NCBI GenBank assembly: GCA_018221105.1
Contig: JAAOYA010000010.1
Span: forward strand, 145,678 to 209,677
Length of the DNA: 64,000 nt
DNA from: Candidatus Woesearchaeota archaeon
GTDB taxonomy: Archaea; Nanobdellota; Nanobdellia; Woesearchaeales; JAAOYA01
Direction of reading: 5' to 3'
Below the pieces are notes generated by a model that was not told the DNA's origin, did not search any database, and worked only from the letters and a program-made list of their open reading frames with translations. The translations under genes were made by a program, and so were the position numbers. Positions 30,966 to 56,010 of the stretch are shown here, piece by piece (position 1 is the stretch's first letter; every line of letters starts with the position of its first letter).

Positions 30966-30985
30966 AAACAGAAATTTCTGGTATT

Positions 30986-31258
30986 GGCGAGCTAGGCCGG
31001 GTTACTAGCCCTTAACCTTTACCGCAAACGGGCTTTACGGCGGGGCTTAAAGCGCAAGGCGGCTTTAGTGAACATTGTTGGTCCTATCAGTTGCTGTCGA
31101 CGTCTCGTCCTTTAGGGTTTGCCTTTGTGGAAAACTGGTCAGACCCTGACGGGAGCAGCCATAACCTTTTAGGTAGGTGTCTAGAGGGTAGCGGGATTGA
31201 GGCGCTGGCAGGATTAAACCAACAGTGCCATTTTAGTCCACTTGTTGCCCGCTCGCCA
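30986..31258 (+). ncRNA. ffs: signal recognition particle RNA (7S RNA)
   Basis: GC-rich island in AT-rich DNA. 5' GGCGAGCUAGGCCGGG pairs with 3' CCCGCUCGCC. Helix-8-like GGUCAGACCCUGACGGGAGCAGCCA (cf. conserved GGAAGCAGCCA). ORF 31091..31273 inside it is spurious. Confidence 0.7.
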
Positions 31259-41862: not shown

Positions 41863-41880
41863 TTTTTGTGTTTGTAGTGT

Positions 41881-42200
41881 ACAGGGGTTATAAGCCGCCT
41901 TTTGTCAAACCCGAAAACAAAACTTTTTTCCTGTTTTGTTCGATGGTTTGCGCTGGTATTTGACTTAGCGTCTAATGACTTGCACCGGTCGAGGTACGCA
42001 CTCGTTTCATCCTTTCCTTCTGAAGCGTCAAAGGGTTAACTGACACCAGTCACCTGGTGCTTCGCGCTTATCATTCTCATATCAGAGGTGGTTTCGTTGC
42101 TGCGTGGTTTTCCCAGGATTTCTCCTGCTGCCATAAAGCAGTGACCTTTTTTGGTGGGCGGACTTTCCTCAGTACATTGTACCGTTAACCAGCCACCCCC
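41881..42200 (-). ncRNA. rnpB: RNase P RNA
   Basis: GC-rich island. Minus-strand sequence contains GAGGAAAGUCCGCCC (CR-I, P4 5' strand) and ACAAAAGGCGGCUUAUAAC (CR-V, P4 3' strand). Confidence 0.7.
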
Positions 42201-42224
42201 ACTACTATAACAAGGATTCTTAGA

Positions 42225-43346: not shown

Positions 43347-45809
43347 TTATTCGTCGCCGTTGTCATCTGTGATGATTTTTGCAGCTGCCACTACTTTGTC
43401 ATCGCTTGATTTCATGCGCATTAATCTTACTCCTTGAGTGTTGCGCCCTATCATGCTAATGCCTTGGGCTGCTGTTCTTATTATAATGCCGTTTTTGCTG
43501 ATTAGCATTACTTCATCGTGTGCTGTTACTGCTTTGACGCTTACAACTTTGCCGTTTCGACTGGTTGTTTGAATGTTTATTACTCCACTGCCACCACGAT
43601 TTATTAGTCTGTACTCTGAGATTTTTGTTCTTTTTCCAAAACCGTTTTCTGTAATTGTCAGCAAGGCGTCTTCATCGTTTGCTAATACCATTCCAACTAG
43701 TTCATCGCCTTTTTTTAGGCTAATGCCACGAACGCCTCTACTAGTTCTTCCTATTGATCTAGCGTCGCGCTCGTGAAACTTAACTGCTTTACCATTGCTT
43801 GAAGCTAGAATTATTTGTTGCTCGCCATCTGTTAGCACAGTGTTAATTAATTGATCATTATCGTCTAAGTTTATTGCAATAATACCGCCTTTTCTTGGTC
43901 TTGAATAAGCGCTCAAACTGGTTTTTTTAATAACACCGTTTTTTGTGGCCATGAGCAAGTAATGATTGTCATCAAATTCTTTTATTGGAATGCAACTGTA
44001 GACTTGTTCTCCTTCTTCTAAGTTTAATAGGTTTATTACTGCTTTGCCTCGTGCTTGACGGCTTGCTTCTGGTATCTTATAAACTTTTAGCCAGTGCACC
44101 TTGCCTTTGTTTGTAAAAAACAGTAAGTAATCGTGAGTGCTGCTAACAAATATTTGTTCTACCCAATCTTCTTCTTTTGTTCCAGTGGCAATGATTCCTT
44201 TGCCGCCTCGACGTTGTGATTTGTAAGTGTCAATTGGCAATCGTTTAGCGTAACCAGCGTGTGTTAGTGTTACTACAACATCTTCTTGTTCTATTAAGTC
44301 TTCAATGTCTAAGTCTTCGTCTTCAACGTCTAAAATGTTTGTTTTTCTGGCGTCTGAAAACTTGTTTTTTAGTTCTTCTAACTCGCTTTTTATGATATCT
44401 AAGATTTTTTGGTGGCTTGCAAGAATGCTTTTTAATTCTTCTATTAATTTTAGTAGTTCTTTGTGTTCTTCACGTATTTTTTCTTGCTCTAAGCCTGTAA
44501 GTCTTTGCAAGCGCATCTCAAGTATTGCTTTGGCTTGAGTCTCTGATAGTTTATAGTTTTGCATCAGGCCAGTTTTCGCGATTTCTGCACTGTTAGATTT
44601 TTTAATTAATTCTACAACACGATCAATATCGTTTAATGCAATAATCAGTCCTTCTAATAGGTGAGCTTTTTCTTGTGCTTTTGTCAAATCATACTGTGTG
44701 CGCCTTGTTATGACTTCTACACGGTGATCGATAAAGTGTTGTAATAATTCTTTTAGGTTCATGAGTTTTGGCTGATTGTTAATCAAAGCTAGCATGTTCA
44801 CGCCAAAAGTTACTTGTAATCTTGAATACTTGTACAATTGGTTTAGTACAACATCACTAGAAGCATCTTTTTTTAATTCTACAATCATTCGCATTCCATC
44901 ACGGTCACTTTCATCACGCAAATCGCTGATGCCCTCAATTTTTTTGTTTTTTACCATATCAGCAATGTGCTCTATTAGTGCTGCTTTGTTTACCATGTAG
45001 GGAAGTTCTGTAACAATAATGCGCTCTCTGCCTTTGCGCTCTTCAATGATTGTCTTGGCTTTTAGTTTTATGTGACCTTTGCCTGTTTGATAAGCAGAGT
45101 TTATACCGTTTTTTCCCATTATTGTAGCGCCTGTTGGAAAGTCAGGTCCTGGCAGATAATTCATTAATTCTGCAATGCTAGTTTCTGGATTGTCGATAAG
45201 AATCATTAATGCTCCTGTAACCTCTGACAAATTGTGTGGTGGAATGTTTGTTGCCATTCCGACTGCAATACCGCTTGAGCCATTGACTAGTAAGTTTGGC
45301 ATTTTTGCTGGTAGAACTGTTGGCTCTTTTAGACTGTCATCAAAGTTTGGCTGGTAATTGACTGTTTCTTTTTCAATATCTTCGAGCAGTGTTTCTGCAG
45401 CTTTTGAGAGTCGTGCTTCTGTGTAACGCATTGCTGCAGCATTGTCACCGTCAACACTTCCAAAATTTCCTTGGCCATTGATTAGTGGGTAGCGCAAACT
45501 AAAGTCTTGCACCATTCTAACTAAGCTGTCATATACTGCGCTGTCACCGTGAGGGTGATATTTACCTAGAACTTCACCAACAATACGAGCACATTTTTTG
45601 AATGGCTTGTTTGACGCCATTCCTAACTCGTTCATGGCATAAAGTATTCGCCTGTGCACTGGTTTTAGTCCGTCTCGAGCGTCTGGCAGGGCACGGCCTA
45701 CTATCACGCTCATAGCATAATCGAGGTAAGAAGTCTTCATTTCCTCATTGATTTCTCGAGGCACAATTTTTTCTGTTGGCGCCTTTGGCGCTAGTGTTTC
45801 ATCAACCAT
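43347..45809 (-). CDS. gyrA: DNA gyrase subunit A
   Basis: [26 protein letters not shown] with active-site Tyr region, and GyrA-box QRRGGKG in the C-terminal beta-pinwheel; 820 aa. Confidence 0.92.
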
Positions 45810-47062: not shown

Positions 47063-47683
47063 TTAGTCTTTTTGCTCTAATTGAGGTTGCTCTACTAATT
47101 GAGCAGGCTCTGATTGTTCAAGCTTTGTTGTCTCTTTAACTGTTTCTTGTTCGCTATACTCTTCAACTTTTGTTTGCGGGTCAACAAGCTCTAATTGATC
47201 AAAAATCTTGCTTTCCTGGCCTTTAGGAAGATCAAAATAATCATTAAATTTAGTTGTCAGTTTTAATATGTATGAGCGCCCATGTTTTTCTTTTGATATG
47301 AAACCAGCGTTTAATAACTCTCCTATTTGCTCGTAGGCTTTGCTAGTGCGCATTTTTATTACTTCCGCTTGCAGCACTGGTTGCTTCCAAGCAATAACTG
47401 CCAGTGTTTCCATAACACTTTTTGTTAGTTCAGCGTTTGGAATGAGTTTTTGCACTAGTGGCAGATAACGCTCTGCTGTGACCATTTTAAACTCGTTAGT
47501 GTCTTCTGTTATCATTATAGGGCTTTCACGCTGTGCGTACTCTTCTTGTAATTCTTGCAAGAATTTTTTTATTGATGGAGTGCTTTTTAGTTCTAATAGA
47601 CTGCTTAGCTCTTGAACGCTTACTTTTCTACCGCAAGCAAATAGTATCGCCTCAATTTGTTTTTTATAGTCTTGTTCGCTCAT
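47063..47683 (-). CDS. scpB: segregation and condensation protein B
   Basis: QIEAILFACGRKVS...METLAVIAWKQPVLQAEVIKMR...GELLNAGFISKEKHGRSY, tandem winged-helix ScpB signature. Confidence 0.8.
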   Translation of the reverse strand: MSEQDYKKQIEAILFACGRKVSVQELSSLLELKSTPSIKKFLQELQEEYAQRESPIMITEDTNEFKMVTAERYLPLVQKLIPNAELTKSVMETLAVIAWKQPVLQAEVIKMRTSKAYEQIGELLNAGFISKEKHGRSYILKLTTKFNDYFDLPKGQESKIFDQLELVDPQTKVEEYSEQETVKETTKLEQSEPAQLVEQPQLEQKD

Positions 47684-48270
47684 TTTACTCTCTCGTATTT
47701 CTTGCCTGTTTTCTTTATTAATTTTTGCTCTACTAAAACTTTTAGAAAACCTTTTAATTCTTTGTCGTCTAAATTTAATATGTTCATTATTTCTTTTTCA
47801 GTTCGCGCCTCACCTAAAACGTGTAGCATGCTATTGCGCAGCAGTATGCTCATGTTGCGTTTTAAGAAACTGTTTTGCGCGTTTAATTGTTTTGCTACCA
47901 TGTCAACATGGTGTAGTTTTCCAACAAGTTCTGTAAATAATGTTGTAGCGTTTGCTGCTTGAAATGAAAAAGTTGCGGGCTCTACTATTTCTACGCTCGA
48001 TGGCATGTAATCAAAACAAAATCCTACAAGCGCTTCCATGTTTTTCGCTAGTAATTCTACTTCACTGTAAGTGCTAAAAAGTTCTCCTTGTTCTGTTGGC
48101 TTTGCAGTGCTTTGTTTTATAACGTGCAAGTCTTTATCATCTTTTATTGCTTTTAGTATTTGCGCCATTGTCTCATCAACATGTGCTAATGGCTTGCCAA
48201 CTAATTCTATGACTGCTACTGCTTGAATGTAGCCTTTATCGAGTTTTTCTTCAATTTCTTCTTTTTTCAT
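47680..48270 (-). CDS. hypothetical protein in the scpA position (possible divergent kleisin)
   Basis: Overlaps scpB start by 4 nt. C-terminal winged-helix-like ...ILNLDDKELKGFLKVLVEQKLIKK, but the canonical ScpA N-terminal motif is not seen. Confidence 0.4.
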   Translation of the reverse strand: MKKEEIEEKLDKGYIQAVAVIELVGKPLAHVDETMAQILKAIKDDKDLHVIKQSTAKPTEQGELFSTYSEVELLAKNMEALVGFCFDYMPSSVEIVEPATFSFQAANATTLFTELVGKLHHVDMVAKQLNAQNSFLKRNMSILLRNSMLHVLGEARTEKEIMNILNLDDKELKGFLKVLVEQKLIKKTGKKYERVK

Positions 48271-48294: not shown

Positions 48295-49887
48295 TTATAA
48301 GTTTTTCCGTCCTAAAAAGTAGAACACATTAAAAAGCATTAAGCCAGTGAGCACAATGTACGCTAATTGTTTTTTTAGTTTTACTTGTTTTGACTCGTAA
48401 ATTATACTATTGCGTGAAACAATAACTGGCAATTTATCACTTGCAATGCTAATTATTGGTTGCGCAACACCTACACTTTCAAAACTTGCGCTTTGAGCGC
48501 TAGCCTCTTGTACTCCTGACTGTACTGTTAAAGGATTTTGTAAACTGACAGTTTTGGTTAGTTCGTAAGGTGTTTTCAAATCATCTTTTCGTATTACAAC
48601 TTTTAGTTTGTAATCGCCACTTTCGCCTTCAAGCACAATGTTTTCTAGTGTTATTTGCGCGTCTGTACTAGCTTGTAAAGTAATAGTTTTAGTGTTTGCG
48701 TCGCGCTCGCCACTATAACTTTTTGGTCCTCGGTAAATGTAGCTGTAAACACTAAATGAGTGTTTTTCGTCATCATTGTTTTCAATTAATAATTTAGTTT
48801 TTGCTGTTGTTCCAATAAGTATTATTGGTTCGTAATCAATGATTTCATAATTGATTGTTTTGCTAGTGGAAGTTTTTGTTTTGTACTTTGTTATTTCATC
48901 ACAGTTTTTTGTGCTTGTTCCACTAAGATGTATTTTTTTTGTTATGACATTATCCAAGCCTTCAATTAGTAAGTCATAATCTTTATTTTTTAGTCTGCCA
49001 TTACAATTTGGTTTTAATTGTACTGGCGTATTAACTATTGCTTCTGAAAACTTTGAATTGATGTAGAATTTGCTAGTGGTTGCCGCGTTAGGTATTCTAA
49101 TATAAACTACTGTTTTGCCAGAGTCTCCCCTGAAAGCTCTTGTTTTGACGTGCACTATATCTCCAAAAGTTGCCTCTGTTGGATAATCTAGTAGTTCTAC
49201 TTCTGAATTGTAGCGCTCTACTCCTTTTTTCACTACTAATTTTTCATCGTAAATGTTTTCATTGGTGTTATTGCACTTAGCGTGCAATTTAGCGCATAGT
49301 ATGAATGCTTTGTCAGTCTCTGAAAATTTTGGAGTGTAACTTTTCTGATTGTCGTTTGACGTGTTATACTTTTTTTTGAGGATGTTTTTAAAAACGTCTT
49401 CAATCCAATATTCAATCTCATAATCAAAAGTTTCATCCAATTCAAAAGAATATTTTATTGATTCATTATTTTCATATAATTTTTTTGTAGATGTTAACTC
49501 TAGTGATACATTGCAAGGTATTGTGTTAGTGTCAATAACATTAATGGTTTTGCAAATAATTTGTTCACTATTATTTATTTGACCGCACAAAACAAACTCT
49601 CCAACTTCACCAATTACTAACGTGCCAGTGTTTGCGTACTTATAACTTTTCACGTCAACTGTGAAAAAATCACTAAAAACTAACGTGTTATTTTTTGATA
49701 AGTTATAATTTACAGTCACACTTACATAATCTCCTCCACTGCTATAAGTTGTGTTCTTGATTTTAAAAAGTCGAGTGTACTCTGAATCCATAAAAACAAC
49801 ATCATCAACATATGTTTCGATAGTCATTTGTGCATTGACAACTGGCAAGAGCAATAATAACAATAAAATAATTTTTGTCTTTAACAT
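48295..49887 (-). CDS. cell-surface glycoprotein (signal peptide, C-terminal TM anchor)
   Basis: N-terminal signal, many N-x-S/T sequons, C-terminal hydrophobic anchor LAYIVLTGLMLFNVFYFLGRKNL. Confidence 0.55.
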   Translation of the reverse strand: MLKTKIILLLLLLLPVVNAQMTIETYVDDVVFMDSEYTRLFKIKNTTYSSGGDYVSVTVNYNLSKNNTLVFSDFFTVDVKSYKYANTGTLVIGEVGEFVLCGQINNSEQIICKTINVIDTNTIPCNVSLELTSTKKLYENNESIKYSFELDETFDYEIEYWIEDVFKNILKKKYNTSNDNQKSYTPKFSETDKAFILCAKLHAKCNNTNENIYDEKLVVKKGVERYNSEVELLDYPTEATFGDIVHVKTRAFRGDSGKTVVYIRIPNAATTSKFYINSKFSEAIVNTPVQLKPNCNGRLKNKDYDLLIEGLDNVITKKIHLSGTSTKNCDEITKYKTKTSTSKTINYEIIDYEPIILIGTTAKTKLLIENNDDEKHSFSVYSYIYRGPKSYSGERDANTKTITLQASTDAQITLENIVLEGESGDYKLKVVIRKDDLKTPYELTKTVSLQNPLTVQSGVQEASAQSASFESVGVAQPIISIASDKLPVIVSRNSIIYESKQVKLKKQLAYIVLTGLMLFNVFYFLGRKNL

Positions 49888-52647: not shown

Positions 52648-53049
52648 TTAAACTTTTCTCCGCTCAAGATAATATTCAAGTAATACTCCGTATGTTCTTC
52701 CAGGTCGTGCGTTATCACCAAGACCGTTCTCTAAAGAAACAGTACCTACATTAATTATGCCTTTATCTGTTTGAGCTCTTATCATTTCACTTTTTCCTGA
52801 GCTAAACTCTGTTTCTTCTAACTCTTCACCTAATCTCCTACAACAATAAACGACAGCTTCCAAATTAAAACTAGAAAACTGAACACTGGTTACAGGTTCT
52901 GGAGTTTCGCGGTTCTTTTCTCCAACAATAATTTTAACAGTATCACTTACAAGCGGGTCAAGAAAACTGTATTGTGGATTAATATTGTTCATTAAAAAAT
53001 ATATTATGTCATTACTGATATTTATTGTTTGTTGTGCTAGACTATTCAC
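52648..53049 (-). CDS. hypothetical protein
   Basis: 133-aa ORF upstream of the radical SAM gene. Confidence 0.35.
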   Translation of the reverse strand: MNSLAQQTINISNDIIYFLMNNINPQYSFLDPLVSDTVKIIVGEKNRETPEPVTSVQFSSFNLEAVVYCCRRLGEELEETEFSSGKSEMIRAQTDKGIINVGTVSLENGLGDNARPGRTYGVLLEYYLERRKV

Positions 53050-53118
53050 TATTTAAAAACAACAGTTTTTTTTTTAGAAAGTTTTTTATACTGTGTTAAG
53101 CCCAATTTATTAAAAGAG

Positions 53119-54360
53119 GTGTGGCAATTGGCATTACTAGGTTTTGGCAAGAAAAAAAATTCAACAATTGATTCTACAACACCAGAGGCTGCGCCGCCAC
53201 CACCACCAGAACCAGAAGACACTGATATTGACAAATTACAAGCTGATTTTAGTAAGATAAGCAACGATGAAGGTGCGGACACAGGACTTAATAGTGCTCC
53301 AGACTTAAATTTTGATCTTCCACCACTGCCAGATTTGGGAGGTGATACTAAAACAGTTGATAAACCAAAGCCTAAGGGTCCATCTTTAGATATTGACTTG
53401 CCGCCAGCACCTGATAGTACTTCAATGCCAAAAACTGAAGTTTCAACACCTGATATCAAACCTGTTGATTTAGAAATGCCTCCAGAGCCTCCAAGTTCGA
53501 AACCACCAGCAAAACTAGAGCCTCAAAAACCTTCCAGTGATAAAGAATTGCCACCACTTCCAACAGAATTGCCAAGCGCTCCACAAAAAACTGAAGTTTC
53601 AACCATTAATACTGCGCCACTTCCAGAACCTGACGCTATTGATGCAGTTTTAAGTGGAAAACCAGTAGAGAAAAAAGAAAAAGAAGAGCTTAAGGTTCCA
53701 GCGTTACCTCAAAAGCTTCCAGAGCCACCAAAAGCAACACCTATTCTGAAACCTAAGCCTAAAAAGAAAGGATTGTTTGCAAAAAAAGTCGTTCCTCAAA
53801 AACCTGTTGTTGTTGGTGCTATAGAGTCAGAGACTGGAGCTCTTGATCAAATAATGGGAGGCTTAAAAGAAAAGCAGCCAGTAATAGCTACGCCTGTACA
53901 GTCAATTGTTACCCCGCCAAAGTTGCCTTCATTAAAAGAACCTGCCCCAGTGGTTCCTTCTTTAAAAACTGAAGCTACTAAGCTTCCAGCACCAACTGTT
54001 AAACCTGTAAGTTTAGAAAATCCTCCAGAGCGCTTGCCACCAATTGAAGATTTAGGAATTACCAAAGAAGAGTTAGAACATGCTAGGACAATGATTACAC
54101 AAAAATTGTCAAGTACGAAAACTACGGGTTTTGGTCCTCCAAAACCATCACCACTATATGTTAAACTAGAAAGTTATAAGTCATTAGATTCAGACCTGCA
54201 ATTTTTGAGCGCTAAACTGGATGACGCTAACAAATTAATCGCTAAAAGCAAAAGAACACTTGCTGATAAAGAAGCACAGTTTAGACAATGGAGTAGTATG
54301 ATTGAAGAAATTCAAAGAAAATTATTATATGTTGACAAAAAAATTTTTGGTGAGAGCTAA
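53119..54360 (+). CDS. Pro/Glu/Lys-rich intrinsically disordered protein with C-terminal coiled-coil domain
   Basis: ~300 aa of PxxP / DLPPLPD-type repeats with no TM, then PLYVKLESYKSLDSDLQFL... helical domain. Confidence 0.6.
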   Translation: MWQLALLGFGKKKNSTIDSTTPEAAPPPPPEPEDTDIDKLQADFSKISNDEGADTGLNSAPDLNFDLPPLPDLGGDTKTVDKPKPKGPSLDIDLPPAPDSTSMPKTEVSTPDIKPVDLEMPPEPPSSKPPAKLEPQKPSSDKELPPLPTELPSAPQKTEVSTINTAPLPEPDAIDAVLSGKPVEKKEKEELKVPALPQKLPEPPKATPILKPKPKKKGLFAKKVVPQKPVVVGAIESETGALDQIMGGLKEKQPVIATPVQSIVTPPKLPSLKEPAPVVPSLKTEATKLPAPTVKPVSLENPPERLPPIEDLGITKEELEHARTMITQKLSSTKTTGFGPPKPSPLYVKLESYKSLDSDLQFLSAKLDDANKLIAKSKRTLADKEAQFRQWSSMIEEIQRKLLYVDKKIFGES

Positions 54361-54584
54361 TGAGTGAACCAATATTTGTAAAAGTTGAAGCTTACAAAGA
54401 CGTGCAAAACATATTAACATTAGTAAATGATAATATGGGACGAGCAAGAAAATTATTACAAGAGTTAAAAGATTTAAAACTTGAAGAAGACAAACAATTA
54501 AACGATTTTTCATTGCAATTAGCAGAAGTTGAGAGCAAAGTCGCAACAATCAATCGCGAGCTAAGCAATTCACCACAACAATAA
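54360..54584 (+). CDS. small coiled-coil protein (paralog 2)
   Basis: PIFVKVEAYKDVQNIL... N-motif shared with the C-domain of the upstream gene; ATGA start/stop overlap. Confidence 0.55.
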   Translation: MSEPIFVKVEAYKDVQNILTLVNDNMGRARKLLQELKDLKLEEDKQLNDFSLQLAEVESKVATINRELSNSPQQ

Positions 54585-54585
54585 A

Positions 54586-54909
54586 ATGGAACAAGATATT
54601 TTTTTTGTTGGCGTTGACAAACCAGACCTACTAAGGCGCAATTTAATGGAAGCTTCAAAGCTAACAATAAATTTTTTTCACCAAGCTAACGAGTTTCAAT
54701 CACTGCGACAGCGAAAAATACGCTTGTTAGAACAACTTTCTGAAGTAGTAGTCAAAACTAATGCTTTGATTGGAGAGTTAAAACATTCTTTTCCAAACAT
54801 TGATTCTTTACCACTGCCACAATTAGACATTGTAGCGCACAATGCAAACCTTCAAGCATTAGAGAATGAACTGACAGATATTGAAAACCAGTTAGACCAA
54901 CTCAACTAA
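54586..54909 (+). CDS. small coiled-coil protein (paralog 3)
   Basis: DIFFVGVDKPDLLRRNL... N-motif; 1-nt spacer from the previous gene. Confidence 0.55.
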   Translation: MEQDIFFVGVDKPDLLRRNLMEASKLTINFFHQANEFQSLRQRKIRLLEQLSEVVVKTNALIGELKHSFPNIDSLPLPQLDIVAHNANLQALENELTDIENQLDQLN

Positions 54910-54984: not shown

Positions 54985-55180
54985 CAGTACCTTTGCGGGG
55001 GTAGGAAAGCGGTCAAATGAAAATCGGGGATTTCCAAAGCTCTGAAATCCTGCGGCTTTCAGATCAAATCCGCTGGACTCAAGAATTATTGAGTGCGGGT
55101 AACAAACCAAGTTTTTTGATGGCGAATCCGCCCATTATTGTGGAATCCAGTCCCTTAGTGGGTTCGGGGGTTCGAATCCC
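54985..55180 (+). tRNA. tRNA-Leu (anticodon CAA) with two predicted introns (D-arm ~51 nt; anticodon loop ~61 nt)
   Basis: Exons assemble to GCGGGGG-UA-GGA-AAGCGGUCAAA-UCC-G-CUGGA-[CUCAAGA]-UCCAG-UCCCUUAGUGGGUUC-GGGGG-UUCGAAU-CCCUC-CCCCCGC-A (class II Leu). First insertion 55008..55058 is flanked by TCAAAT direct repeats; second 55075..55135 follows the canonical anticodon loop. Confidence 0.55.
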
Positions 55181-55260: not shown

Positions 55261-56010
55261 ATGAAACTTACACTTGCAGAACCAAGATATTTAAAAGACA
55301 GTGTTAGTATAATTAGTGATTTAGTCAACGAAGCACGTTTTACTATAACAAAAGACGCTGTTGAACTTGTTGCTATGGACCCTGCTAATGTTGCAATGGT
55401 AGTGTTCAAATTATTATCTAGCAGTTTTGTCGAATACACTATTAAAGAAGACACCAGTATCGCAATAAATTTGTCAAACTTAAAACAAGTATTAGCACGA
55501 GCAAAAGCTAATGATATGCTAACTTTAGAGCTTGACAAGGACGCTAGCAGACTAATTGTCAAATTCAAAAGCAACACTATAAGAACTTTTAGCTTGCCAA
55601 TTCTTGATTTAGAAGAAAAAGAACAAAAAGTTCCAGAACTAACTTTTCCAATAACCATTGAGACAAGCTCAGCAGTACTCAACGAGGCAATCGAAGACGC
55701 TGACGTTGTAGCAGAAAGCGTGAATTTCATTGCAGAAAAAAATAAGTTGACACTTTTAGCTGAAGGCGACCTCTCAAATGCTAACATTGAAATTAGCGCT
55801 GATGACGAGACTAAAATCCAGGCTGAGGGCATGGATAAAGTTAAAGCAAAGTATTCAATTGAATACATGAAAAAAATCATTAAAGGCTCAAAACTGTCTG
55901 ATAGAGTTAAAGTTCAATTCAATAAAGATTACCCATTAAAAGTAGAGTACAAAAGCGTTGACAAAGTGTTAATGACTTTCATACTAGCACCACGAGTAGA
56001 AAACGATTAA
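55261..56010 (+). CDS. pcn: DNA polymerase sliding clamp (PCNA)
   Basis: 249 aa; MKLTLAEPRYLKDSVSIISDLVNEARF... PCNA N- and C-domains. Antisense ORF 55215..55880 is a Ser-rich artefact. Confidence 0.88.
   Translation: MKLTLAEPRYLKDSVSIISDLVNEARFTITKDAVELVAMDPANVAMVVFKLLSSSFVEYTIKEDTSIAINLSNLKQVLARAKANDMLTLELDKDASRLIVKFKSNTIRTFSLPILDLEEKEQKVPELTFPITIETSSAVLNEAIEDADVVAESVNFIAEKNKLTLLAEGDLSNANIEISADDETKIQAEGMDKVKAKYSIEYMKKIIKGSKLSDRVKVQFNKDYPLKVEYKSVDKVLMTFILAPRVEND

Follow-up and report, generated by a model that had tools for sequence, protein, structure and literature searches.

A conserved three-gene operon of DPANN archaea encoding a candidate membrane-tethered coiled-coil complex

Membrane-anchored adaptors with a disordered link are a known design, and among the proteins built in this way are the FtsZ anchors and adaptors SepF, ZipA and CdpC. 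In SepF, an amphipathic targeting helix at the N-terminus is joined through a flexible linker to an oligomerising C-terminal domain with an alpha/beta core. ZipA is anchored in the membrane by a true transmembrane (TM) helix, from which a long Pro-rich linker leads to a binding domain at the C-terminus. In haloarchaea, CdpC (HVO_0399) is described as the membrane anchor of FtsZ1, which its C-terminal domain binds, and requires a zinc finger in both of its terminal domains (bioRxiv 10.64898/2026.07.16.738847). Divisome positioning in FtsZ-using archaea has been assigned to the Dip system, in which DipA is a GTPase, DipB a SepF-like protein of the DUF2073 type and DipC a Zn-ribbon protein, and which within DPANN has been reported only in Nanohaloarchaeota (PMC13228585). 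Here we describe a locus of three genes (p1, p2 and p3, together the trio) found at 53119-54909 of a 64,000-nucleotide stretch of a Candidatus Woesearchaeota archaeon genome (contig JAAOYA010000010.1, 232.6 kb; the whole stretch is referred to as the window). By analogy, the trio parallels SepF, ZipA, CdpC and DipC in build, not in sequence, and it is a member of none of these systems.

The trio was identified from open reading frame (ORF) calls on the window as three consecutive ORFs on the same (+) strand. The genes, together with the conserved C-terminal domain of p1 (the A domain), are as follows.

53128..54360, + strand: p1, the long subunit (GOV04_05580), 410 amino acids (aa) when read from TTG and identical to the NCBI protein
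GTG at 53119 to 54360, + strand: longest ORF variant of p1, 413 aa, ORF call
54145..54357, + strand: A domain of p1 (PLYVKLESYK...QRKLLYVDKKIFGES), from hidden Markov model (HMM), BLASTP and AlphaFold2 (AF2)
54360..54584, + strand: p2, the short subunit (GOV04_05585), 74 aa, consisting of the A domain alone; ORF call and identical NCBI protein
54586..54909, + strand: p3, the third subunit, family C, 107 aa; ORF call

An initial interpretation made from the letters of the window (the sequence-only reading) had described three packed same-strand ORFs with an ATGA overlap between the first two and a 1-nucleotide (nt) spacer. The packing is borne out by these coordinates and the 1-nt spacer holds for the junction of the p2 stop and the p3 start. 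The p1/p2 junction instead reads TAATG, with the last A of the TAA stop doubling as the first base of ATG (1-nt overlap). Such close packing suggests that translation of the three genes is coupled, and coupling of this kind would favour the production of the subunits in near-stoichiometric amounts. For p1, the TTG at 53128 is the start called by NCBI and gives the N-terminus MALLGFGKKK; it was taken as the better start because it matches the conserved N-terminus of the long forms described below. An antisense ORF of 136 aa (window 53049-53459, - strand) overlaps p1 in its 5' portion. Since p1 belongs to a conserved family and the antisense translation is of low complexity and Ser/Gly-rich, this ORF is unlikely to be a gene.

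The p1 protein is built from an N-terminal motif, a disordered linker of ~330 aa and the C-terminal A domain. The last ~70 residues of p1 align without gaps to the whole of p2 (23% identity, BLASTP E=3e-8), and an HMM of the family matches p1 with E=2e-22 (residues 343-412 of the 413-aa ORF) and p2 with E=4e-26. Judging from these matches, the p1 C-terminus and p2 are true paralogues which define an unannotated A-domain family. In p1 the domain comprises a short hydrophobic strand-like motif and then a coiled-coil helix of ~57 residues. With a profile of p2 and the p1 C-terminus, HMMER was run in full over 1.84 billion cluster representatives and identified 963 of them at E<=1e-3 and 47 at E<=1e-10. 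The best 150 of these matches, bar two giant coiled-coil proteins, form two classes: short forms of ~72-80 aa possessing the domain alone and long forms of 130-410 aa with the domain at their extreme C-terminus.

The consensus of the domain begins P-[VIL]-[FY]-V-K-[IV]-[ED]-x-Y-K-x-[IV]-L ... K-x-K-L-x-E-A and continues L-K-x-E-E-D-x-E-L-x-x-W ... I-[EK]-x-K-L-x-x-I-D-K-x-L-F-E. Strongly conserved columns, in p2 numbering, are W50 (99%), Y12 (94%), E43 (91%) and P4 (86%). Hydrophobic columns recur with a spacing of 3-4 over positions 12-68 and are broken by K40-x-x-E43-D44, a charged patch in which K40 is present in 82%, E43 in 91% and D44 in 77% of sequences. This pattern fits a coiled coil of eight heptads with a polar layer mid-way, and either the K40/E43/D44 patch or position 50 could set partner specificity or register. 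The p2 protein of the window has Phe in place of Trp50. A reading of the P-x-F-V-K-I-E-x-Y-K motif as a ribbon-helix-helix or SepF-core start was also considered and was rejected, as the helix in the AF2 model is continuous over ~57 residues.

The sequence-only reading had taken the three proteins to be one domain triplicated. For the p1 C-terminus and p2 the homology is supported by the BLASTP and HMM results above; for p3 it did not survive a reversed-sequence control, and p3 was rejected as a third A paralogue. No significant similarity was obtained between p2 and p3 using BLASTP (E=17). Profile-profile comparison (hhalign) of families A and C gave a probability of 23% over a 25-column patch, and with the N-domain of C alone 12.6% (P=0.002), compared with P=0.013-0.018 for reversed controls. 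When 81 family-C N-domains were scored against the A HMM, the median was 5.2 bits for the forward sequences, 8.2 for the reversed and -0.55 for the shuffled. As the reversed sequences outscore the forward ones, the resemblance of p3 to the A domain is attributed to heptad periodicity and composition, not homology. Because of the same control, no weight is given to the marginal A-HMM matches seen on the third genes of two loci (L076, 8.6e-4; L085, 3e-4).

On the evidence of its alignment and profile match, p3 belongs to a separate, co-conserved and unannotated family, designated C, whose HMM matches it with E=2e-24. The alignment of this family has four parts: an N-domain (FFVxI..P..[IV]RR.ILE..K....LQ.[FY]EKFK..R..K), a conserved LPxTxLR turn, a Lys-rich spacer and a C-terminal ELxKLExEL..IExKL helix. 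Most family-C relatives carry the Lys-rich spacer but it is missing in p3 of the window, where the N-motif reads FFVxI..P..RR.ILE and the C-terminal helix has the pattern ELxxLExEL..IExxL. AF2 modelling of p3 from its single sequence gave a mean predicted local distance difference test score (pLDDT) of 80.9 with helices at 13-68 and 79-106, and family C is thus predicted to form a helical hairpin. A Foldseek search of the p3 model against PDB returned no match below E=0.1.

Neither the A domain nor family C has a match in Pfam, NCBIfam, PADLOC or PDB beyond coiled-coil noise. The sub-threshold matches in Pfam, NCBIfam and PADLOC were of this kind (Sec2p, Med9, NPV_P10), and sequence searches of PDB with both family profiles gave just generic coiled coils, at E of at least 0.02. 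The earlier statement that the shared domain matches no named family stands in these profile searches. Word-indexed protein searches with p2 and p1 found no match beyond the proteins themselves, and the same type of search with a 46-sequence A profile found 11 short unnamed metagenomic matches and nothing else. In literature searches the family was not found described, and the analogous Dip and CdpC systems alone surfaced.

To establish the distribution of the trio, one genome per GTDB species was scanned using seven closer A sequences as the alignment. A single 9-residue pattern picked out A-domain relatives in at least 228 species-representative genomes. The loci of the 80 best matches were fetched and, with the window, 81 loci were compared. 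The titles of these 80 genomes are Woesearchaeota, Nanoarchaeota, Nanobdellota, metagenome-assembled genomes (MAGs) named plainly as 'archaeon' and some 'uncultured Methanosarcinales'. Woesearchaeota are placed in the kingdom Nanobdellati of the DPANN group (taxonomy look-up). The Methanosarcinales titles (L001, L002, L004, L008 and about 25 other loci) are taken as a labelling artefact, since these loci match the other MAGs in trio and synteny, with identities reaching 83%.

The arrangement of the trio is conserved. In 79 of 80 loci the short form is immediately preceded by a long form in the same orientation, the exception being cut by a contig end, and the median gap between the long-form stop and the first aligned short-form residue is 17 nt. 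The next gene after the short form belongs to family C in 79 of 81 loci, and the order long-short-C is kept in 79 of the 81. Four loci of more distant relatives (L081 and L083-L085; L082 repeats L081) likewise possess the intact trio, L081 coming from a GC-rich organism. At L086 (2836-3791) the end of the long gene overlaps by 4 nt the start of a family-C gene for a 116-aa protein, with no short gene between the two. In L086 and L087 the contig ends soon past the C gene, and the short gene may lie elsewhere. The trio is a previously undescribed operon conserved across Woesearchaeota and Nanoarchaeota-type DPANN archaea. No relatives of the trio were found in a scan of viral contigs, and PADLOC gave zero matches for seven trio proteins from three loci; together these results are consistent with a housekeeping cellular role.

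It could be argued that the trio is simply three lineage-specific coiled-coil proteins with unrelated roles, held together by inherited synteny. All 80 loci come from one broad lineage and coiled-coil proteins are known to draw spurious similarity, as was seen with p3. This explanation is nevertheless considered improbable, given that the long-short-C order with genes that overlap or nearly touch is kept down to ~25% identity and also where the flanking genes differ, and that the two A domains are paralogues which have been retained side by side.

The N-terminus of the long subunit is the second conserved element of p1.

53128..53163, + strand: N-terminal motif of p1 (MALLGFGKKKNS), a degenerate copy of the family consensus M-G-F-L-K-F-L-K-R-x-K-K

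The motif takes the form of a short hydrophobic or amphipathic stretch followed by a basic cluster. Using a regular expression it was detected in at least 123 of 139 long forms, the remaining forms being mostly start-codon miscalls. Variants among the long forms include MGFLKFLKREKK, MGLFKKKK and MGIFDFLKK, the copy in the window being MALLGFGKKK. The Eisenberg hydrophobic moment of the consensus is 0.51. The N-terminus MALLDFFLSRKK of MinE and the C-terminus GFLKRLF of MinD are verified membrane-targeting sequences; their likeness to MALLGFGKKK and MGFLKFLKR concerns a low-information motif of 10-12 residues and is an analogy only. The N-terminal motif of the long forms looks like a membrane-targeting sequence, and from its form we infer that it would bind membrane.

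A different use of such an N-terminus would be export, with the long subunit acting as an extracellular or surface tether, for example in host contact, and the Pro-rich arm serving as a rigid TonB-like spacer. Pro/Glu/Lys-rich spacers are typical of envelope-spanning proteins and DPANN archaea live attached to hosts. In addition, a conserved divergent neighbour of the trio (cluster c2, 48295-49887) looks like a secreted or membrane-anchored, surface-protein-like product with a C-terminal TM segment. The N-terminus of the long subunit, however, has only 4-6 hydrophobic residues before Lys/Arg and neither a signal-peptide core nor a TM segment, and the short and C subunits are without any export signal, which makes export highly unlikely.

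Between the two conserved ends of p1 lies the disordered linker, which carries four proline motifs.

53164..54144, + strand: disordered linker of p1, 19% Pro, net charge -9, no Cys, pLDDT mostly <60
53314..53331, + strand: linker motif 1, DLPPLP, of the class [DE]-hydrophobic-P-P-x-P
53395..53412, + strand: linker motif 2, DLPPAP, of the same class
53473..53490, + strand: linker motif 3, EMPPEP, of the same class
53545..53562, + strand: linker motif 4, ELPPLP, of the same class

The 410 aa of p1 include 66 Pro, 52 Lys and 33 Glu residues, one His and no Cys, and the protein is without a TM segment. In the AF2 model residues 1 to ~310 are disordered, followed by a short helix (313-328) and a long helix (350-407) with pLDDT >90. 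The long Pro/Glu/Lys-rich disordered arm without TM segment that had been proposed for the first protein was thus recovered in both composition and predicted disorder, the Pro/Lys/Glu-rich sequence extending over about 340 residues. Across 78 loci the linkers range from 51 to 326 aa, with medians of 18% Pro and a charge of -15, the linker of the window being the longest. Repeats of DLPPLPD/LPPAPD type had been noted in this arm, and p1 carries four [DE]-[LM]-P-P-x-P copies, spaced about 25 residues apart, as motifs of the DLPPAPPPLEGF type. The class [DE]-hydrophobic-P-P-x-P occurs 80 times in 80 linkers, compared with 3.4 +/- 1.7 (maximum 11) in 500 composition-preserving shuffles. The first motif is found at median residue 21, directly past the N-terminal motif, and the proline motif also recurs in divergent subfamilies of long forms. 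In the subfamily of L086 and L087 the linker of the long form carries FPKY/LPKYE motifs.

Proline motifs placed next to a possible membrane-binding N-terminus call to mind ESCRT systems, where MIM2 proline motifs recruit MIT-domain ATPases and the N-termini of ESCRT-III proteins insert into the membrane. The trio might accordingly be pictured as an ESCRT-like module, its motifs being MIM2-type recruiters of a Vps4/CdvC-type MIT-domain ATPase and its N-terminus membrane-inserting, for which the MGLF/MGFL start with its basic residues and the enrichment of motifs directly past it would both speak. The sizes and folds of the subunits argue otherwise: the A domain is ~70 aa with one ~57-residue helix and p3 a 107-aa hairpin, compared with an ESCRT-III core of ~150-200 aa, and none of the subunits has a Snf7/ESCRT-III match in Pfam. 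There is also no AAA ATPase in the conserved neighbourhood, though no search was aimed at an ATPase partner. An ESCRT-like module is accordingly regarded as very improbable.

Given this combination of features, the interpretation that we favour, with somewhat better than even confidence, is that the trio encodes a heteromeric complex of coiled coils which the N-terminus of the long subunit holds at the cytoplasmic side of the membrane. That N-terminus (consensus MGFLKFLKRxKK, here MALLGFGKKK) would bind the membrane face and the acidic, Pro-rich linker, of very variable length, would project into the cytoplasm, where the one to several [DE]-hydrophobic-P-P-x-P motifs may be docking sites for a putative partner. 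At the far end, the A domain of the long subunit (~8 heptads) would pair both with its free paralogue, the short subunit, and with the helical hairpin of C, which is basic in most loci. Coupled translation across the gene junctions would favour near-stoichiometric amounts of the three. Median net charges over 78 loci are -7 for the short A domain, +1.5 for the long A domain and +11 for C, and the charges of the subunits are thus complementary across the operon as family medians. Besides membrane binding, we infer heteromer formation with its stoichiometry and a partner of the proline motifs. The initial suggestion of a scaffold or tether is strengthened by the conserved N-terminal motif, the variable linker rich in motifs and the retention of the trio in 79 of 81 loci.

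A number of observations weigh against this tethered complex. The copy of the N-terminal motif in the window, MALLGFGKKKNS, has a hydrophobic moment of only 0.10 and is a weak version of the motif. The C subunit of the window is acidic (-6) and has no Lys-rich spacer, so the argument from charge complementarity is weaker for this locus. The lack of an intervening short gene at L086 suggests that the short subunit may not be obligatory. The linker-motif counts across loci are inflated by the shared ancestry of the sequences, and synteny among related MAGs may be inherited and not functional. Finally, the neighbourhood provides no link to a process, as the only same-strand neighbours are tRNA, RNase J and PCNA, with ScpB and GyrA on the opposite strand.

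When compared with the systems outlined above, the long subunit parallels SepF in its plan, with a putative N-terminal targeting element, a disordered linker and a predicted oligomerising domain at the C-terminus, and the strand-then-helix start of the A domain is superficially like the start of the SepF core. The trio differs in having a predicted single long coiled-coil helix in place of the SepF alpha/beta core, a far longer linker and two extra dedicated subunits, and no Pfam match to SepF (PF04472) was obtained for p1, p2 or 46 family members. The long subunit resembles ZipA in its putative anchor, long Pro-rich linker and C-terminal domain but has no TM helix of the ZipA kind, and no ZipA, MinE or MinD domains were detected in the trio using Pfam and NCBIfam. 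CdpC shares with the long subunit a fast-evolving sequence and a conserved domain plan; p1 is without Cys and so has no zinc fingers, its C-terminus is a coiled coil, and CdpC is described for haloarchaea whereas the trio is found in Woesearchaeota- and Nanoarchaeota-type genomes (bioRxiv 10.64898/2026.07.16.738847). Like the trio, Dip is a three-gene archaeal operon, one component has a membrane-targeting helix comparable to the putative N-terminal tether here, and DipC is similar to the long subunit in that its conserved termini surround a variable disordered region (PMC13228585). Searches of Pfam and NCBIfam matched none of the trio proteins to a GTPase, to DUF2073 or to a Zn-ribbon. While the membrane-anchored adaptor with a disordered link is a design already known, the A and C families, having no characterised relatives, would appear to be new.

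The genes surrounding the trio in the window include the following.

43347-45809, - strand: GyrA, upstream
47063-47683, - strand: ScpB, a conserved upstream neighbour
47680-48270, - strand: winged-helix protein of 196 aa, overlapping the ScpB start by 4 nt
48295-49887, - strand: conserved 530-aa protein (cluster c2), no Pfam match, relatives with a C-terminal TM segment
54995-55190, + strand: tRNA-Leu(CAA) with two introns, called by ARAGORN after removal of the introns
55261-56010, downstream of the trio: PCNA

The c2 protein, the winged-helix protein and ScpB recur upstream of the trio in 52-57 loci, and the winged-helix protein next to ScpB may be a kleisin partner. Four unrelated genes (for an MFS transporter, a SpoIIM-like protein and a radical-SAM enzyme, together with a 133-aa ORF) lie between the trio and these upstream neighbours in the window. 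Downstream, RNase J is present in 43 loci, the window not among them, and PCNA in 31 loci.

Such neighbours would suit a soluble coiled-coil adaptor associated with the nucleoid or with replication that works with them in chromosome handling, using the usually very basic C subunit to bind DNA or RNA, while the N-terminal motif would not act as a membrane anchor. RNase J and PCNA downstream and ScpB, the winged-helix protein and GyrA upstream are in keeping with it, as are the median charge of +11 and the Lys-rich spacers and tails of C. We consider it unlikely. ScpB and GyrA are on the opposite strand, with the four unrelated genes intervening in the window, the C subunit of the window is acidic, no DNA-binding fold or family was detected in Pfam, NCBIfam or Foldseek searches, and the conserved hydrophobic-then-basic N-terminus would be left unexplained.

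If the trio is instead a membrane-tethered complex, the anchoring of a divisome or of a chromosome-handling machine is the leading guess for its role, based on the architecture of the FtsZ anchors and adaptors SepF, ZipA and CdpC; the assignment to division or chromosome handling from synteny is likewise a guess. More specifically, the trio could be a DPANN-specific, convergent anchor or adaptor of the division or segregation machinery, whose amphipathic N-terminus keeps it at the membrane, whose multivalent [DE]-hydrophobic-PPxP arm captures FtsZ or another filament or ATPase and whose heteromeric coiled coil sets valency or spacing. We put this forward tentatively and hold it to be rather doubtful. 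The FtsZ signature GGGTG[STA]G was absent from all ORFs of the window and the 80 loci. The PRC-barrel fold is used by the archaeal division proteins CdpB1 and CdpB2. A PRC-barrel gene of 87 aa was observed at L081 (14305-14568; also L082, 6480-6743), ~5 kb downstream of the trio and past RNase J and PCNA, and RFC is also found a few kb downstream of the trio in L081. In the window, no such gene was observed adjoining the trio.

DPANN archaea account for a large share of the diversity of Archaea and are almost wholly uncultivated, and most genes conserved in them are functionally uncharacterised. In this setting, three hypothetical proteins can now be described as two unannotated families (A and C) in a fixed gene order, with a defined and testable build: an N-terminus resembling membrane-targeting sequences, an arm made multivalent by its proline motifs and a core formed by a coiled coil. 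Work on haloarchaea has provided the division anchors and positioning systems known from archaea. Were the adaptor role to hold, the trio would be one more independent way of holding a cytoplasmic machine at the membrane and would offer a handle on the cell biology of organisms not yet grown. Otherwise, it could still merit a new entry in Pfam or arCOG, and it is a useful synteny marker by tRNA-Leu, RNase J and PCNA.

The intron-containing tRNA-Leu and the PCNA gene that the sequence-only reading had placed downstream of the trio were both found there. The tRNA-Leu(CAA) possesses an intron of 51 nt in the D-loop region (55018-55068) and one of 61 nt next to the anticodon (55085-55145). In the raw sequence it is missed by ARAGORN and by Rfam at the gathering threshold, and without the introns ARAGORN gives a clean call. 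An intron-less tRNA-Leu(CAA) directly follows the trio at L012 and L024. Elsewhere in the window, Rfam identified an archaeal RNase P RNA (41879-42205, - strand, 123.8 bits) and an archaeal SRP RNA (30985-31258, + strand, 108.3 bits), which is consistent with a segment of an archaeal chromosome.

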